DNA of 64,000 nucleotides from contig PMCS01000030.1 of the NCBI GenBank assembly GCA_003154195.1, positions 123,446 through 187,445 of the forward strand, in the 5' to 3' direction. The position numbers were made by a program, and so were the translations under genes. Source of the stretch: Candidatus Omnitrophota bacterium. GTDB lineage: Bacteria > Omnitrophota > Gorgyraeia > Duberdicusellales > 4484-171. Under the pieces are notes generated by a model. The model saw nothing but the letters and a program-made list of their open reading frames with translations, was not told the origin of the DNA and did no database searches. Shown here piece after piece: positions 7,231 through 57,568 of this stretch. Positions within the stretch are counted from its first letter, which is position 1. Every line of letters starts with the position of its first letter.

Positions 7231-7443
7231 GAACATAAAAATTCCCCTTAAGAATCAAAGAAAGCCATAGGATGATTGTAGAAATTTTTAGCCACTAAGA
7301 CACAAAGGCACTAAGATTATACATCGAGCTAAAGACAAAGAACATTATGATTAATTTCATTATAAATTGTAAATTTATCATTTCGGTACCTGTTATTTTT
7401 TCTTAGTGTTTTGGTGCCTTTGTGGCGGAAAAAAGGGGGTAAG

Positions 7444-7818
7444 ATGTTAAAATTCAGTAAATCTCATGAATGGGCGAAGATAGACGGCAGTACGGCAATG
7501 ATGGGGATTACCGATTACGCCCAACATTCGCTGGGTGATATTGTTTTTGTGGAATTACCTAAAGCGGGGACAAAGGTAACCCAGTCCGGCCGTTTAGGGA
7601 CAATCGAATCGACCAAGGCAGCCAGTGAATTATATTCGCCAATATCCGGGGAAGTTATTGAGGTTAACAAAGAGCTCGCCGGCAAGCCTCAGCTGGTAAA
7701 TGAAGACCCTCTCGGCAGGGGTTGGATGATTAAAATTAAAATAGCTAATCAGAAAGAAAGCGAAGGTTTAATGGACGAAGCGCAGTATAGAGAGTTTGTA
7801 GAAAAAGAAAAACATTAA
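7444..7818 (+). CDS. gcvH: glycine cleavage system H protein
   Basis: Lipoyl-lysine context ESTKAASELYSPISGEV. The RBS AAGGGGGT precedes ATG 7444; the ORF track TTG at 7411 was rejected. Confidence 0.9.
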   Translation: MLKFSKSHEWAKIDGSTAMMGITDYAQHSLGDIVFVELPKAGTKVTQSGRLGTIESTKAASELYSPISGEVIEVNKELAGKPQLVNEDPLGRGWMIKIKIANQKESEGLMDEAQYREFVEKEKH

Positions 7819-7948
7819 ATAACCTAAAAACTGAAAAACTGAAGAAGTAAGAAAAAGATATAAAACTAGTTTCAGTTTCATGGTTTTTATATTTTCTAGT
7901 TTTTAGTTCTTCAGTTTTTAGGTTTTTACGTTTTTTGGTGCATTAATT

Positions 7949-9292
7949 ATGCCTTACATCCTAAACACCGAAGCCGACATCAAGGAAATGCTTAAAGCGA
8001 TAGGGTTAAATTCGCTCGATGAGCTTTTCCGCCGGTTGCCCGGGCAAATCAGATTAAAAGAACCGCTGAAGATCGCCGCCGGCCTCAGCGAGTATCAAGT
8101 TAAAAGCGCTGTTGCTGCTTTGGCGGCAAAAAACACCCCGGTCGATGGTTTTAATTCTTTTTTAGGCGCGGGTTGTTATGACCACTATATACCTGCGGCA
8201 TTACCGTCGATAATTTCGCGTTCAGAATTTGTTACCGCTTATACTCCCTATCAGGCGGAAGCCTCTCAGGGGTCTTTGCAGGCGATTTATGAGTATCAAA
8301 GCTATATCTGTCTTTTGACGGGCATGGATGTTGCCAATGCTTCGATGTTTGACGGCGCTTCCAGTATGGCGGAAGCGGCGTTGATGGCTTTGCGCATAAC
8401 CGGCAGGGATAAAATAGTTGTTTCCGGATCAATCCATCCCGAATTCCGGCAAACCTTAAAAACATATTTATCCGGTTTTGATTTCACGATAAAAAACGTC
8501 GGCTTTGATGAGCATGGTTTTGTCGATACCGGAAGCTTAAACGAGGCTATTGATGGCCGGTCGGCGTGTTTTATCGCGCAGAGCCCTAATTTTTTCGGGT
8601 TAATCGAAGACGCGGCAAAAATCGGCAGGATGATTAAGGAGAAGGGAGCCATTTTCATTATGGTTGCCAATCCTTTGTCTCTGGCGATTTTAAATGACCC
8701 GGCTTCCCTGGGCGTGGATATTTTTTGCGGCGACGGCCAGCCTTTAGGCGGAGCGCTGAATTTCGGCGGCCCTGCTTTCGGCATTCTGGCGACGCGAAAC
8801 GAATATTTGCGCCAGTTGCCGGGAAGGATCGTCGGTAAGACTACCGACCGGCAGGGGAAAGAAGCGTATTGCCTTACGATGCAGGCCAGAGAACAGCATA
8901 TCCGGAGAGAAAAAGCGACCAGTAATATTTGTTCCAACCAATCGCTTAACGCCATCGGCGCGGCGGTTTATCTTTCCCTTATGGGTAAAGAAGGGTTGAC
9001 CGGCGCGGCGCTGAGATCTTTAGAAATGGCGCGGTATCTTCATGAGTGTTTAAAGAATGTAGGAAAAGTTAAAATTAAATTTTCATCGCGATTTTTTAAC
9101 GAGTTTGTCTGGGAAATCGAAGGCGCAAAAAAAATTGTAAAGAAACTTTATAAAAAAAGAATAATCGCCGGTTTTCTTTTAGGCGAATTCTATCCCAAAT
9201 TAAAAAATTGTATTTTGAGTTGTTGCACTGAGAAAAAAAGTAAAGGCGATATTGATAATTTTATTGAAACATTGAAAAATGTAATTTGTTGA
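7949..9292 (+). CDS. gcvPA: glycine dehydrogenase (decarboxylating) subunit 1
   Basis: GDC-P N-terminal subunit signature. It follows gcvH in the operon. Confidence 0.9.
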   Translation: MPYILNTEADIKEMLKAIGLNSLDELFRRLPGQIRLKEPLKIAAGLSEYQVKSAVAALAAKNTPVDGFNSFLGAGCYDHYIPAALPSIISRSEFVTAYTPYQAEASQGSLQAIYEYQSYICLLTGMDVANASMFDGASSMAEAALMALRITGRDKIVVSGSIHPEFRQTLKTYLSGFDFTIKNVGFDEHGFVDTGSLNEAIDGRSACFIAQSPNFFGLIEDAAKIGRMIKEKGAIFIMVANPLSLAILNDPASLGVDIFCGDGQPLGGALNFGGPAFGILATRNEYLRQLPGRIVGKTTDRQGKEAYCLTMQAREQHIRREKATSNICSNQSLNAIGAAVYLSLMGKEGLTGAALRSLEMARYLHECLKNVGKVKIKFSSRFFNEFVWEIEGAKKIVKKLYKKRIIAGFLLGEFYPKLKNCILSCCTEKKSKGDIDNFIETLKNVIC

Positions 9293-9403
9293 GCCGGTTG
9301 GGATTGTTGAGCCTGTTAGTGCCGTTAGAAGATTTTAACGCTACAACCGGCTCAACCGACTTAACTGGCTCAACGAAAACACGATTTTAGTTCAGGTTAT
9401 TTT

Positions 9404-17849: not shown

Positions 17850-17990
17850 GAATCAGGATGTCAGGATTTGGGGATTGGGAAATCGGGGGATTAGGGAAAT
17901 GCCGAAGAAGCGATAGCTGTCAGCCAAATATCCCAATGCCCTAATTTCCAAATCCCAATTGCCTAATATCCTAATTCCTTTATTATTACA
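17850..17990. repeat. long imperfect palindrome built from GGGATT(A)GGG / CCCTAATCC-type short repeats (family B-like)
   Basis: Left arm GGATTTGGGGATTGGGAAATCGGGGGATTAGGG; right arm CCCAATGCCCTAATTTCCAAATCCCAATTGCCTAATATCC. Confidence 0.45.
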
Positions 17991-18041: not shown

Positions 18042-19751
18042 ATGGCCAGATATAGAAAAATAGGGGATATCCTGTTAGCGGAAGGGATTATCACCGAAAC
18101 ACAAATTAAAGAAGCGATTGCCGCCCAGCAAAAAGAAGGCGGGAAGTTGGGAGAAATCCTGGTTAAGCTGGGATATGTCACGGAAGAGCAAATCGTTATC
18201 GCCTTAAGCAAACAATTATCCATTTCTTATGTTTCCCTTGTCTCGGGAAAATTAAAGCCGGCCGCCGATCAGGAGCTGGAAGAGCTCGTTCCCCACGACT
18301 TTGCCGTGAGAAACCTGGTGCTGCCGCTTTTTCGCAATATCAATTCTTTAACGGTAGTGATGTTCAATCCCCTTGATTTAATCCTCATCGATAATTTAAA
18401 GAAACTGACCGGATGCGAGATAAATCTTATCATATCCACCAAAGCGGATATTTTAAAAGCAATCGAAGCGTTTTACGGCAAAGACAGCCTTTTGAAGGAT
18501 ATGATTGATGCGGCCGCCGGCGATAATATTGTCACCGCGGAGATCCGCAATGTGGCGCAGAGCGATTTAAGCATCGATAAACTTATCGAACAGGCGGAAG
18601 AGGCGCCGGTAATCAAGCTTGTTGATTTGATCATTAAGCAGGCGATTGACGAAAGCGCTTCGGATATCCACATCGAGCCCCAGTTTGATAAATTCAGCCT
18701 GCGCTATAGAATAGACGGTATGCTTTATGAGATGCCTTCCCCGGCCATGTCGTTGTATTCGCCGATCGTATCGAGGATTAAAATACTCTCCAAAATGGAT
18801 ATCGCGGAAAAACGCCTTCCTCAGGACGGAAGCTTTATGGTGAAGATGGGCGAACGGATCATCGATTTGCGGGTATCAAGTTTGCCTACGATTTACGGCG
18901 AGAAGGTCGTCATGAGGATTCTTGATAAAACGCGTATCCCCCTTGATCTGGCAAAACTGGGATTTTTGCCCCAGGAATTGGAGATGATCAGAAAAGGCAT
19001 ATCCTCGTCTTACGGTTTGGTTTTTCTTACCGGGCCTACGGGCAGCGGAAAATCAACGACGCTTTACGCGGCGCTTAATGAGCTGCGCTCGTCGACGACC
19101 AATATCCTTACCGCGGAGGACCCTGTCGAATACCGGGTCGAAGGGATCAACCAGGTGCAGGTTAAACCGGATATCGGCTTGACTTTTGCCACAGCCTTAC
19201 GCTGTTTTATGCGTCAGGACCCCGATATAATCCTGGTAGGAGAAGTGCGCGATTTGGAAACCGCGGAAATCTGCATAAAAGCGGCTTTGACCGGGCATCT
19301 GGTTTTATCTACCCTGCATACCAATGACGCGGCTTCTACTGTCACCCGGTTGGTGGATATCGGGTTGCCCAGTTATCTGGTTACGGCAAGTTTACGTTTG
19401 ATTGTTGCCCAACGATTAATACGTAAACTCTGCCCTCAATGCAAAGAGCCCTATGAGGTTAAGGAAGAAGAAATTCCCAAGGGGGTAAAGCTTAATTCCC
19501 CCGTGATTTATAAAGCGAAAGGCTGTGAAAAATGTAATTTTATCGGTTATAAAGGAAGGATGGTTATCCCCGAGATCATTCTGATGAGCGATGAATTGCG
19601 GGAAGCCATTCATAACAAGTGCAGTCCCGCTCAGTTTATGGAGATAGCCCGGCACAAAGGAACAATGACCCTTTTGGAGAGCGGTATCAAAAGAATCGAA
19701 GAGGGCGCTACTTCTTTAGAAGAAGTTCTTTCTTCGACTACGATATTTTAA
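18042..19751 (+). CDS. pilB: type IV pilus assembly ATPase PilB (GspE family)
   Basis: N-terminal GSPII_E_N domain, Walker A GPTGSGKST and the tetracysteine motif CPQC...CEKC. Confidence 0.9.
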   Translation: MARYRKIGDILLAEGIITETQIKEAIAAQQKEGGKLGEILVKLGYVTEEQIVIALSKQLSISYVSLVSGKLKPAADQELEELVPHDFAVRNLVLPLFRNINSLTVVMFNPLDLILIDNLKKLTGCEINLIISTKADILKAIEAFYGKDSLLKDMIDAAAGDNIVTAEIRNVAQSDLSIDKLIEQAEEAPVIKLVDLIIKQAIDESASDIHIEPQFDKFSLRYRIDGMLYEMPSPAMSLYSPIVSRIKILSKMDIAEKRLPQDGSFMVKMGERIIDLRVSSLPTIYGEKVVMRILDKTRIPLDLAKLGFLPQELEMIRKGISSSYGLVFLTGPTGSGKSTTLYAALNELRSSTTNILTAEDPVEYRVEGINQVQVKPDIGLTFATALRCFMRQDPDIILVGEVRDLETAEICIKAALTGHLVLSTLHTNDAASTVTRLVDIGLPSYLVTASLRLIVAQRLIRKLCPQCKEPYEVKEEEIPKGVKLNSPVIYKAKGCEKCNFIGYKGRMVIPEIILMSDELREAIHNKCSPAQFMEIARHKGTMTLLESGIKRIEEGATSLEEVLSSTTIF

Positions 19752-19799
19752 TAAAAATAACATAAAAACCAAAAAACTGAAAAACCAAAAAACTTAACA

Positions 19800-20174
19800 A
19801 TGAGCGATATTTTTAGATTCAGAGAATTTCCGGTATATAAAGACGCAAGAAAATTGAGAAAAGATTTAAAGCTGCTAAGTAAAGAAAAATTCCCCGGAAC
19901 CGAACAATATTGTTTAACATCTCAGTTGTGGAGAGCATTGGATTCGATTATTCTCAATATAGCCGAGGGTTCAGACAGATGTTCAGATACGGATTTCAGT
20001 AGATTTTTAAACAATTCCTTAACCTCCGTTAATGAAGTAGCCGCCCGTTTGGATTGTGCTTTAGATGATGGCTATATTACTGTAAAAGAGCAAGACATAT
20101 TTATTCCCTTGGCTGAAAATATTGCGAAACAGCTAAAGGCTTTTAGTTCAAAAGTACGAAATGATAATGGTTAG
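19800..20174 (+). CDS. four-helix-bundle protein (23S rRNA intervening-sequence protein family)
   Basis: 124 aa. The YKDARKL...FPGTEQYCLTSQLWRALDSIILNIAEGSDR...FLNNSLTSVNEVAARLDCALDDGYI pattern matches PF05635-type proteins. It is flanked by inverted A/T-rich repeats at 19752-19799 and 20175-20215. Confidence 0.7.
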   Translation: MSDIFRFREFPVYKDARKLRKDLKLLSKEKFPGTEQYCLTSQLWRALDSIILNIAEGSDRCSDTDFSRFLNNSLTSVNEVAARLDCALDDGYITVKEQDIFIPLAENIAKQLKAFSSKVRNDNG

Positions 20175-20215
20175 TTTCTCGGTTTTTAAGTTTTTTCGTT
20201 TTTAGGTTACCTACC

Positions 20216-21436
20216 ATGCCCCAATACCTCTACGTTGCTAAAACAAAAGACGCGCGTCAGATAAAAGAGAAAGAAGAAGCCGGCTCCCGGGAAGAGCTGG
20301 TGGCGCGGCTGCGCAGCCGCGGGCTGTTTATTATCTCGCTGGCGGAGGTGCAGGTTCAGAAAGGTCCCACGCTTTTTTTTATGAAGAAAAGCAAGCGCGG
20401 ATCGGTCAATCTTTACGACCTGACGCTTTTTTCGAGGAACCTGGCTACTACCTTGTCGAGCGGCGTAACATTATTGCGCAGCCTGGAGATACTCGCCGTT
20501 CAAACCGAGAGCGCTAAATTGGAAAAAATACTGAAAGCCTGCTCCGGATACATAAAAGGCGGGCTTTCTTTAAGTGATGCCATCGCCAAGTACCCCAATG
20601 TTTTTTCGCCGCTCTGGCGGGGTATTGTGGAAGTGGGGGAGGCCAGCGGAAATTTACCGTCGGTTCTGGAGAGATTGGCGGATTATTTAGAGATGCGCAT
20701 GGATTTTGAGCGTAAAGTGCAGAGCGCGATGGTATACCCGGCGATAATTCTTGTCGTTGCGGGCGGCGCGATGGTTGTTTTTTTTAAGTTTATCCTTCCT
20801 AAATTTACGGAAATATTCAAGCAATTTAATATGAAATTACCCCTGTCGACGCAGATTATGTTCACGATCAGCCAAATTTTTGAAAAATATTTTATTTTAC
20901 TTTTGGGAGGAACTGTAGGTTTAGTGATTGCCGGTATTTATGCGATGAAACAGCCCGAAGTAAGAAAGGTGTGGGATAGAGTCAGCCTTAAATTACCGAT
21001 ACTGGGCCCTCTTCTCACTCTCACTGCTTTGGAGAGGTTTACTTCTACGATTAATATTCTTTTAGACAGCGGGCTTCCCCTGGTATTCAGCCTCGAAGTT
21101 TCGGCGAGAGGTATCGGCAATTCTCTTTTGGAACATAGCATCCTGGCGGTTAAAGATAAGGTTAAGGAGGGTTCTCCTTTATCCGACGAATTAAGGAAGC
21201 TTAATATTTTTCCCGCTCTCGTATCGGAGATGTCCAAAATCGGCGAAGAAACCGGCAGTATGCCTGAGGTGTATAAAAAAATATCAGTATATTATCAAAA
21301 AGAATTATCGGCGCGCGTCGAGCGTCTTGTCGCGGCGTTCGAGCCGTTAATGATTGTTTTTATGGGACTGCTTATCGGAGCAATGGTTATTTCTTTATTT
21401 CTGCCCCTGTTTAAGCTTAGCTCGCCTGGCGGGTAA
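20216..21436 (+). CDS. pilC: type IV pilus inner-membrane platform protein PilC (T2SS-F family)
   Basis: Two T2SSF repeats and three TM segments. 406 aa. Confidence 0.9.
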   Translation: MPQYLYVAKTKDARQIKEKEEAGSREELVARLRSRGLFIISLAEVQVQKGPTLFFMKKSKRGSVNLYDLTLFSRNLATTLSSGVTLLRSLEILAVQTESAKLEKILKACSGYIKGGLSLSDAIAKYPNVFSPLWRGIVEVGEASGNLPSVLERLADYLEMRMDFERKVQSAMVYPAIILVVAGGAMVVFFKFILPKFTEIFKQFNMKLPLSTQIMFTISQIFEKYFILLLGGTVGLVIAGIYAMKQPEVRKVWDRVSLKLPILGPLLTLTALERFTSTINILLDSGLPLVFSLEVSARGIGNSLLEHSILAVKDKVKEGSPLSDELRKLNIFPALVSEMSKIGEETGSMPEVYKKISVYYQKELSARVERLVAAFEPLMIVFMGLLIGAMVISLFLPLFKLSSPGG

Positions 21437-39636: not shown

Positions 39637-39683
39637 CCATCCGCGAAGCGGATGGCGGTTATTTTTTGCGCAGCAAAAAATAA
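39637..39683. repeat. composite family A element: GC hairpin CCATCCGCGAAGCGGATGG plus AT palindrome TTATTTTTTGCGCAGCAAAAAATAA
   Basis: The same two modules occur in inverted order at 46241-46289. Confidence 0.6.
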
Positions 39684-39684
39684 T

Positions 39685-40077
39685 ATGAAACGAGAATTAG
39701 ACGTAGTCGCGGCGTTGATTAAAAAAGGCAGAAAGATACTCCTTTGCCGGCGGCATCTTCATGATCACTACGGCGGTTTGTGGGAATTTCCCGGCGGGGC
39801 GGTGGAAAAGGGAGAAACTTTTGAGGCGGCAATCGAGCGGGAGATAAAAGAGGAAACCGATTTAAACATTAAGGCTGTCCGATTGGTGGGTAAATTTTAC
39901 GATGAGGATGAAACGTTGATCATCCATATTTATTTGTATCGTTGCGATATCATTTCGGGGCAGATTGCCGCTCGCGATTGCGCCGATTTTGGATTTTTCC
40001 CCTTGCCGGATATCGCCCGGTTGGATTTAGCTCCAGCCGATAAGAAAATTTATTATTTTTTACTGCGTAAAAAATAA
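39685..40077 (+). CDS. NUDIX hydrolase (MutT-like)
   Basis: Nudix box GGAVEKGETFEAAIEREIKEETDL. Confidence 0.8.
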   Translation: MKRELDVVAALIKKGRKILLCRRHLHDHYGGLWEFPGGAVEKGETFEAAIEREIKEETDLNIKAVRLVGKFYDEDETLIIHIYLYRCDIISGQIAARDCADFGFFPLPDIARLDLAPADKKIYYFLLRKK

Positions 40078-50410: not shown

Positions 50411-50537
50411 ACCGGTTAAGGTAATGGTAAGGATGCCAGTATAGGTTAGGGTAAAGGTAAAGGCTTTAAAATTAGTATCAGCCTTTACCTTTGCCTTAGC
50501 CCAAACCGGCTTCCTTACCCTAACCCTAACCTTAGTG
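50411..50537. repeat. about 125-bp imperfect palindrome built from GGTAAGG / GGTTAGGGT short repeats (family B)
   Basis: Arms GGTTAAGGTAATGGTAAGG...GGTTAGGGTAAAGGTAAAGGC and GCCTTTACCTTTGCCTTAGCCC...CCTTACCCTAACCCTAACC. Confidence 0.55.
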
Positions 50538-53899: not shown

Positions 53900-54045
53900 G
53901 TGTTGGAGTGTCAGAGAAAAACCGAAGGACGTGGGACGTCCGCGGTAGTAACCGCTGGGACGAAGGACGAGCGTCAAAGTGTCAGGGCGTCAGAGCGGTT
54001 TTTAACTATGACGCTGTGACGCTATGACACTTTGACACTATAATA
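53900..54045. repeat. palindromic short-repeat element (GTCAAAGTGTCAGGGCGTCAGAGCG / CGCTGTGACGCTATGACACTTTGAC)
   Basis: Inverted arms built from GTCA/GACG-type short repeats. Confidence 0.45.
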
Positions 54046-57435: not shown

Positions 57436-57568
57436 GGCTAAGGCTAAGGTTATGAAGCCGGTATAGGTAAAGGTGAGGGTTAGGGCTTAAAACAATTTTT
57501 TAGCCTTAACCTTGACCCTAACCCTAACCTATACGGGCATCATTACCCTTACCCTAACCATTTTGTAT
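57436..57568. repeat. about 130-bp imperfect palindrome of GGCTAAGG / GGTTAGGG / CCCTAACC short repeats (family B)
   Basis: Arms GGCTAAGGCTAAGGTTATG...GGTGAGGGTTAGGGC and GCCTTAACCTTGACCCTAACCCTAACC...CCCTTACCCTAACC. Confidence 0.55.

Follow-up and report, generated by a model that had tools for sequence, protein, structure and literature searches.

A PF05635 gene framed by inverted arrays of 8-nt units in the pilB-pilC spacer of an Omnitrophota pilus operon: a candidate rRNA-IVS-type selfish cassette

The function of the PF05635 'IVS protein' and the origin of the intervening sequences (IVSs) have stood open since about 1990, when IVSs were first described, and the same holds for the origin of the cyanobacterial STRRs (short tandemly repeated repetitive heptamers). 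A gene of this family lies within a type IV pilus operon in the 64-kb stretch of DNA analysed here (the window), which comes from a peat Omnitrophota metagenome-assembled genome (MAG). The order of the operon is pilM/N-?-?-pilQ-pilB-X-pilC-pilin, where X is the ORF at 19800-20174, and the locus raises the question of what X is and how it came to stand between two pilus genes. The evidence leans towards a selfish cassette of the rRNA-IVS type, composed of the PF05635 gene and inverted AARAACNN arrays and inserted in sense orientation into the pilB-pilC spacer, and this is the reading that we consider rather probable. The features on which the argument depends are the following.

18042-19751, + strand: pilB-like type IV pilus ATPase (T2SSE/MshEN; PF00437, E 1.6e-136, together with PF05157), the upstream host gene
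19752-20215, + strand: the whole pilB-pilC spacer, 464 nt, inserted relative to the 1-20-nt spacers of relatives
19758-19799, + strand: left (5') arm, about five tandem 8-nt units (AAAAACCA, AAAAACTG, AAAAACCA, AAAAACTT etc.), abutting the ATG
19800-20174, + strand: 124-aa PF05635/TIGR02436 gene, assigned by profile matches, between pilB and pilC
20168-20209, + strand: right (3') arm, made of the unit reverse complements GGTTTTTA, AGTTTTTT and CGTTTTTA
20216-21436, + strand: pilC-like platform protein (T2SSF; PF00482, E 1.7e-55), the downstream host gene
7809-7944, + strand: ORF-less hairpin filling the gcvH-gcvPA spacer, arms at about 7817-7858 and 7895-7936, built of the same units as the pilB-pilC element

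ORF 19800-20174 is the sole open frame of such size in the spacer and the only PF05635 gene of the window. Its product scored above the cut-offs of both profiles of the rRNA-IVS-type family (PF05635: E 3.7e-23, 82.2 bits against a cut-off of 33.8; TIGR02436: E 2.1e-20, 72.9 bits against 24), which bears out the assignment made in the preliminary description. The start codon is not preceded by a Shine-Dalgarno sequence and the leader is A-rich, while a consensus scan of the + strand of the cassette for a promoter or terminator of its own returned no more than the shuffled expectation. No Rfam match was obtained at E up to 1 across positions 19600-20350, ruling out a known RNA family as the identity of the insert; rRNA is absent from the window, in which three tRNAs are the sole RNA-family matches. 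An anti-phage defence gene was ruled out as well, PADLOC giving no match at E up to 0.01.

Comparison with related sequences shows that the spacer is an insertion and that the host genes are intact. In the four closest relatives by PilC (62-67% identity) the order secretin-pilB-pilC is conserved and no PF05635 gene is present, the distance from the pilB stop to the pilC ATG being 1, 4, 20 and 14 nt. The C-terminus of the window pilB and the N-terminus of its pilC align end to end with the proteins of these four relatives, and the pilB stop codon is native, with a C-terminus equal in length to those of the relatives (loci L067-L070). Because their gaps measure 1-20 nt and the termini align in full, the 464-nt spacer represents added DNA, as the preliminary description had supposed; pilB and pilC are adjacent without the insert in these relatives, which is the reverse of a gene universally present at the locus without flanking repeats. 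The identical protein was found in GCA_003154645.1 and in five metagenome contigs with its context unchanged. All six assemblies of the window species carry the insert and, since they are 99.96-100% identical, they are uninformative about an empty/filled polymorphism.

The inverted A/T-rich strings reported to flank the gene are present as arms of 42 nt. The best inverted repeat pairs 19758-19799 with 20168-20209 (83% complementary, separation 368 nt) and delimits a cassette of about 452 bp, the right arm overlapping the stop codon of the PF05635 ORF and ending 6 nt upstream of the pilC ATG. Both arms are built of an 8-nt unit, AAAAACNN in the left and NNGTTTTT in the right, a tandem makeup that had escaped the first reading of the sequence. 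The three-unit pattern AAAAACNNAAAAACNNAAAAAC, with up to two mismatches, matched the window 11 times against 0.07 expected, and all 11 matches fall in the four arms of the pilB-pilC element and the gcvH hairpin, on the + strand in the left arms and on the - strand in the right ones. A regular expression for at least four units likewise matched the window at these four arms and nowhere else. Folding of the flanks as RNA, the check put forward together with the initial proposal, gave an arm duplex of -26.5 kcal/mol against -10.2 +/- 2.9 for shuffled sequences (z -5.5), and 26 long-range pairs with a mean probability of 0.87 were predicted for the 491 nt folded; the z-score of the whole-region fold is -0.5 only.

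The same architecture recurs well outside this genome. Homologues sharing 60-79% identity were found in Omnitrophota, many Patescibacteria classes, Saganbacteria/WOR-1, a Brocadiia MAG and MAGs labelled Gammaproteobacteria. The 120-nt flanks of 96 non-redundant copies were compared with displaced genomic controls, and the flanking inverted repeats of 89 of them scored above the 99th percentile of the controls (mean score 35.9 vs 15.5; median arm 31 nt). Arrays of period 8 numbered 61 upstream and 59 downstream of the gene, those of period 7 numbered 32 and 33, and the consensus units are A-A-R-A-A-C-N-N (8 nt) and T-G-A-C-A-W-T (7 nt). Average-linkage clustering defined two protein clades, which correspond to the unit period without exception (30/30 and 53/53); this correlation may reflect co-inheritance of gene and arms and not recognition of a site by the protein, and to that extent it counts against the selfish-cassette reading.

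More distant PF05635 genes accompanied by arrays of 7-8-nt units occur in Cytophagales (Bacteroidota), Luteolibacter (Verrucomicrobiota) and cyanobacterial plasmids, and the Omnitrophota relative L151 carries a different PF05635 subfamily with similar arrays. On plasmids of Anabaena, Pseudanabaena and Calothrix the PF05635 genes are embedded in tandem unit arrays, with runs of AAAAGCT (x15), CAGGTGA/CAGGGAA (x45) and TTAGCT/AGCTAAA, and on plasmids of cultured cyanobacteria the gene lies between cas6 and cas4. Most of the loci are MAG or metagenome contigs, so that array lengths may be mis-assembled, a caveat offset by the agreement of the cyanobacterial plasmids and of the six assemblies made independently for the window species. 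Where homologues lie among unrelated genes they bear similar inverted arms, as would be expected of the stem-loop-borne cassette initially proposed for this locus, and gene and arms travel as a single unit across phyla and contexts. Database homologues carry mis-called N-terminal extensions (TEELKNRRTEE and similar), which are translated arrays.

The cassettes are placed in sense with respect to their surroundings. At the 75 non-redundant loci having both neighbours called, by a simple ORF heuristic, both are co-directional with the cassette in 60 cases and the cassette is antisense to both in 3 (an earlier count gave 32/36); the gaps to the neighbours are approximately the arms themselves. 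Junctions within housekeeping operons include rpsB|tsf, def|fmt (twice), YebC/RuvC, pth, rplA and sigma factors. The Rfam scan detected no rRNA in 40 homologous loci, and no universal rRNA motifs were seen in the 156 loci fetched.

Hairpins of the same units also occur without the gene. The one at 7809-7944 (-41.1 kcal/mol, z -6.4), between gcvH and gcvPA, whose identities were confirmed, is probably a gene-less derivative of the pilB-pilC element family; a likeness to hairpins near gcvH had been pointed out in the preliminary description and extends to the units themselves, and the nearest relative (L151, GcvPA 70% identical) holds a full PF05635 cassette in this very spacer. In the relative L153 the gcvH|gcvPA spacer contains a 146-nt ORF-less periodic hairpin, with others in the adjacent gcv spacers. 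Dozens more unit arrays lie distant from any PF05635 gene in the fetched loci, most of them as +/- pairs forming hairpins of 70-130 nt that exactly fill gene-gene spacers (e.g. L075, L045, L039 and L147), and the ORF-less hairpins between + genes are in sense orientation in 9/9 cases. Three mini-hairpins stand in frame within an HdrA-like gene at locus L143, at least one of them a clear insertion relative to the solved HdrA. Within the window, long tandem-unit hairpins occupy the operon spacers at 7285-7432, 7809-7944, 9285-9377, 17864-17955, 50414-50531, 53970-54039 and 57436-57559; the other periodic-arm hairpins of the window's operon spacers, that of pilQ|pilB included, have different units. 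The inverted repeat around a NUDIX gene (39659/40051) proved to consist of a small self-palindrome present twice and is not a PF05635-type cassette. The family-wide occurrence of the arms and the ORF-less derivatives had gone unnoticed at first. Taken over several phyla, the gene-plus-arms cassettes and the gene-less hairpins appear to be a family of selfish elements not described before.

Selection for an RNA stem would make the complementarity of the arms depend on the mirrored order of their units and would raise G·U pairs above A·C mismatches; neither effect is seen. Permuting the unit order in the 3' arm changed the best complementarity from 20.6 to 18.9, with p <= 0.05 in only 5/56 elements, the window element among the five (z 3.2). 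On the sense strand 134 G·U wobble pairs were counted against 126 A·C mismatches (p 0.66), and of the 8-mer's two variable positions one is paired in only 41% of cells. In the absence of such a signature, the complementarity of the arms follows from one motif being repeated in both, oppositely oriented. Together with the whole-region fold, these tests led to rejection of a selected RNA stem, a side of the arms that the first reading had likewise missed. The pattern of sequence variation points to a constraint at the level of DNA or of a protein site, and we read the unit arrays as recognition sites or as the product of DNA-level homogenisation. According to the folding models the stem should still form in RNA, without being taken as the selected feature.

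The arms were also considered as translational insulators, with stops in all frames. All three frames are closed by the 5' arm (sense) and the 3' arm (antisense) in 47-48% of elements, compared with 6-8% of shuffles; this closure is driven by the TGACA 7-mer clade (87-93%), is weak for the 8-mers (26%) and is absent from the sense strand of the 3' arm. The idea is thus partly borne out, but it is contradicted by the in-frame inserts of L143.

These results bear directly on the strongest rival of the selfish cassette, a host-beneficial RNA module, which we consider unlikely. Intercistronic hairpins of the E. coli REP/BIME or cyanobacterial STRR type would here tune the stability, processing and translational coupling of operon mRNAs, the protein would be an RNA-binding accessory, and the cassette would be kept for regulating the operon (pilB vs pilC) and not through selfishness. 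Tandem-unit hairpins do fill many operon spacers of the window and several gcv spacers of L153, yet the nearest relatives manage with pilB-pilC spacers of 1-20 nt. The long-range stem is predicted with high probability, but the arms are devoid of an RNA signature, G·U and A·C being close in number, the permuted order about equal and one position near-random. A regulatory role would explain the strict sense orientation to the host genes, which the ORF-less forms share, and STRR hairpins have been proposed to influence transcript stability or coupling (PMC2670836); against this, the same cassette is found in unrelated junctions and duplicated within one genome, and a role in mRNA stability is implausible for the mini-hairpins lying in frame in the HdrA-like ORF.

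A second alternative is very improbable: X would have long resided in type IV pilus operons as an accessory gene with a role in the pilus, and the repeats would be incidental. This alternative draws on a recurrent association with pilus genes: further pilB|pilC insertions are present in another Omnitrophota lineage (L014/L079/L081) and in Paceibacter (L057), and pilC or pilin genes are neighbours at L010, L034/L137, L039, L041 and L052. The occupants of the pilB|pilC sites, however, are of two protein clades, each with its own unit type, implying that they were inserted separately, and the gene is missing from the four nearest relatives. Most homologues adjoin unrelated housekeeping genes, and the other homes of the family are rRNA and cas operons (PMC4990558, PMC3936711, PMC11270868).

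The AlphaFold2 (AF2) monomer model of the 124-aa protein (pLDDT 87.6) comprises four helices. In Foldseek comparisons the model superposed on Xcc0516 (2GSC) with TM 0.86-0.94 and rmsd 1.1-1.2 and on BT_0352 (2RLD) with TM 0.75-0.87; both entries contain five chains, and by analogy the protein is probably a pentamer. The RxxxSxxxNxxEG motif described for the PF05635 family (PMC3936711) is located in helix 2, with R45, S49, N53, E56 and G57 invariant among 22 homologues. Helix 1 is basic, and the pI of the window protein is 6.3 (not basic), the family median being 8.7. The median dN/dS within the clade of the window protein is 0.10; the protein is under purifying selection and is therefore functional. 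The weakest alternative, the Avd protein of a diversity-generating retroelement (DGR) or a DGR remnant, hardly deserves credence: Avd is a PF05635 member (PMC10053308) and the Bordetella phage Avd shares the fold, both by itself and within the DGR RNP (4DWL, 8UB7; TM 0.74-0.87), but the sequence search retrieved Xcc0516 at E 9e-10 and not Avd even at E up to 1, the neighbours of the homologues show no enrichment in reverse transcriptases, and none of the ten flanking ORFs, over about 8 kb, encodes a reverse-transcriptase domain, for which reason the gene is not taken as a DGR Avd.

Returning to the selfish cassette, evidence of movement comes from copies within and between genomes. Near-identical cassettes can occupy two sites of one genome: L086 and L088 lie 2.8 kb apart on a single contig and are 97.9% identical over arms and ORF, with unrelated flanks and a two-unit indel in one array. 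Cassette proteins of different phyla are 70-79% identical, above the 62-67% of PilC among the Omnitrophota relatives. The closest homologues are saturated at synonymous sites (dS above 1), so that most copies are old residents and not recent arrivals. No transposase, recombinase or reverse transcriptase was found in the cassette or among the neighbouring ORFs, nor any target-site duplication or conserved terminal motif at the junctions compared. Viral relatives were found neither in IMG/VR (pattern scan) nor in 50,697 phage records (tblastn), and the plasmid search gave three distant cyanobacterial matches only; a phage or plasmid vector was discarded on these grounds. The orientation bias, which includes the gene-less forms, fits by analogy a route dependent on single-stranded DNA and the replication strand (IS200/IS605, REP/RAYT) or one templated by RNA.

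A scheme can be proposed for the way in which such an element might work. The cassette would have no promoter of its own and would be expressed by read-through from the pil operon; once transcribed, its arms would pair into an imperfect stem of about 35-40 bp. This stem would be a plausible substrate of RNase III, as in the 23S rRNA IVSs, and its cleavage would free the ORF and leave pilB and pilC on separate messages, which would account for the tolerance of such insertions in operons and rRNA. The tandem units would be recognition sites, most likely for the encoded protein, and it would be these sites, not the RNA stem, that are kept by selection. The gene-less hairpins would be non-autonomous or decayed copies, and movement could go through an ssDNA hairpin (as in REP/IS200) or through RNA.

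The locus and its relatives thus point to a clade-specific, orientation-biased cassette of tandem-unit inverted arrays with gene-less derivatives, and what would be annotated as a 'hypothetical protein between pilus genes' leads to concrete questions, namely whether the protein binds the arrays, whether RNase III processes the arms and how hairpin copy number relates to the gene. For annotation, it matters that spurious N-terminal extensions regularly arise from translated arrays, which can also sit in frame within real genes.

Among known systems, the 23S rRNA IVSs (Leptospira, Coxiella burnetii, Xanthomonas and others) come nearest in protein family and in carrying the ORF in the loop of a hairpin of terminal inverted repeats. 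The Coxiella IVS measures 428-444 nt, contains an S23p ORF, is closed by a terminal stem of 28 bp and is cut by RNase III (PMC4990558), and the present element, of 452 nt, is of the same size class. Both kinds of element also lie in sense within a host unit that is highly transcribed, have a sporadic and horizontally patchy distribution and exist in short ORF-less versions. The host, in contrast, is here the spacer of an mRNA operon and not helix 25/45 of the 23S rRNA; the arms, in place of a near-perfect 28-bp stem, have 7-8-nt units in tandem that mispair about once each; and the ORF is under strong purifying selection, whereas that of Coxiella is decaying (PMC4990558). As the defining location fails, the pilB-pilC element is not a 23S rRNA IVS, though it would work like one.

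The cyanobacterial STRR hairpins are objects of the same kind as the arms: units of 7 nt in tandem pair with their complement to give hairpins between the co-transcribed hupS and hupL (PMC2670836), and an STRR hairpin inside the RNase P RNA gene is mentioned through a citation of Vioque 1997 in PMC4046671. Tandem short units with their complement likewise make a hairpin in an operon spacer here, and the sister clade has 7-nt units. The units of the window element are, however, of 8 nt, the host is an Omnitrophota and the hairpin carries a gene, whereas STRRs have been described without a protein and only in cyanobacteria. The literature searched, whose coverage is incomplete so that an earlier description of the arrays is possible, contains no link between STRRs and PF05635.

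REP/REPIN-RAYT systems have in common with the cassette a small gene between inverted short repeats, gene-less inverted doublets dispersed in the spacers of the same genome, repeats capable of forming hairpins and a strand or orientation bias. They differ in that the cassette encodes a four-helix bundle instead of an HUH/Y1 transposase, has tandem arrays as arms in place of one palindrome of 20-40 nt, and belongs to a family that spans phyla with 60-79% identity. Rickettsia palindromic elements (RPEs) and MITEs are also short, palindromic and non-autonomous insertions, and the in-frame hairpins of L143 are RPE-like; unlike in these elements (for MITEs, TIR transposons), neither a transposase partner nor a target-site duplication was seen, and the window copies are intergenic.

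PF05635 genes interrupting cas operons (cmr3|cmr2) have been viewed as having possible cas-associated functions, their flanking arrays going undescribed (PMC3936711, Zhang & Ye 2013). They stand, as does the gene found here between cas6 and cas4, between co-directional operon genes and belong to the same family as the pilB-pilC insert. All these cases allow a broader and tentative proposal, which we hold as possible and rather doubtful: PF05635 proteins may be the trans-acting partners of a hitherto unrecognised, phylum-spanning class of hairpin elements with arms of tandem 7-8-nt arrays, each clade recognising its own unit, which would unite the rRNA IVSs, the STRRs, the stray four-helix-bundle genes of cas, pil, gcv and ribosomal-protein operons and the RPE-like palindromes.

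A close inspection of contig Ga0180431_10000037 revealed two cassettes, each a PF05635 four-helix-bundle gene bracketed by inverted arms of tandem units, separated by 2.8 kb:

L086 1989-2372, fetched locus: cassette
L088 1989-2372, fetched locus: cassette

They share 97.9% identity, arms included, within unrelated flanks, and their left arrays differ by two units. An extended -10-like TGGTATAAT is placed immediately outside the left arm of both.

Among the fetched loci, cassettes are found between pilB and pilC in L014, L079, L081 and L057, and adjoin pilC or a pilin gene in L010, L034/L137, L039, L041, L052 and L045, the last of which also carries a mini-hairpin (paired arms without the gene) in each spacer between the small downstream genes. 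Cassettes of both unit types have thus entered type IV pilus operons independently and more than once. About 10% of the loci have their cassette in such an operon, a share that seems to exceed the expectation from gene content.

Periodic arms without the PF05635 gene could also be seen in the window:

7809-7944: hairpin with AAAAACNN units, as in the pilB-pilC cassette, occupying the gcvH-gcvPA spacer
7285-7432, 9285-9377, 17864-17955, 50414-50531, 53970-54039, 57436-57559: further long hairpins, in spacers of co-directional genes

The first folds at -41 kcal/mol (z -6.4), and in a relative (L151) the same spacer holds a complete PF05635 cassette of another subfamily. The arms of the further hairpins, one of which occupies the pilQ-pilB spacer, are built from tandem 6-8-nt units that differ in sequence from the AAAAACNN type, namely CACTAAGA, GTTGAGCC, GGGATTNG, GCGTCANN and, twice, a telomere-like GGTAAR/CCCTAA. 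These hairpins may be what is left of cassettes from other clades.

Some repeats depart from the inverted layout. The array 3' of the gene at L028 2867-3000 and L015 640-760 is oriented like the 5' array, and may be the left arm of a neighbouring element. Two further pairs in the window are self-palindromic and fall outside the periodic-arm type:

39659-39685 and 40051-40077: two copies of the self-palindrome TTATTTTTTGCGCAGCAAAAAATAA, bounding a NUDIX gene (39652-40077)
890-918 and 1065-1093: similar pair, around position 1000

In the 5' arms of 87 elements (window 19758-19799, for example), stops in all three frames were met on reading inward from either side in 47-48% of elements versus 6-8% of shuffles, and in 87-93% of the TGACA 7-mer clade. 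This enrichment may be a by-product of the unit motif. The annotated N-terminal extensions of the database homologues P0032, P0052, P0069, P0070 and P0071 (e.g. MNTTEELNNGRTEERKNGETEG) are the translated upstream unit array, their start codons being mis-called because of these repeats.

Two arrangements resemble known systems:

L143 722-850, 977-1048, 1297-1375: 8-mer-type mini-hairpins, in frame within an HdrA-like gene (621 aa)
L154 1208-1887, L155 1054-1829, L156 970-1520: four-helix-bundle gene within long heptamer arrays, cyanobacterial plasmids

The L143 mini-hairpins translate to TKELKNERTGSSVSPFLSSSVSS and the like, and at least the third (1297-1375) is an insertion with respect to the solved HdrA (8RVV); their in-frame position recalls the Rickettsia palindromic elements. 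The plasmids belong to cultured hosts (Pseudanabaena, Anabaena sp. 90 and Calothrix), and in the first two the gene is flanked by cas6 and cas4. Their arrays (AAAAGCT x15, CAGGTGA/CAGGGAA x45, TTAGCT/AGCTAAA), less regular in geometry than those of the window cassette, look like the classical STRR (short tandemly repeated repetitive) sequences of cyanobacteria.
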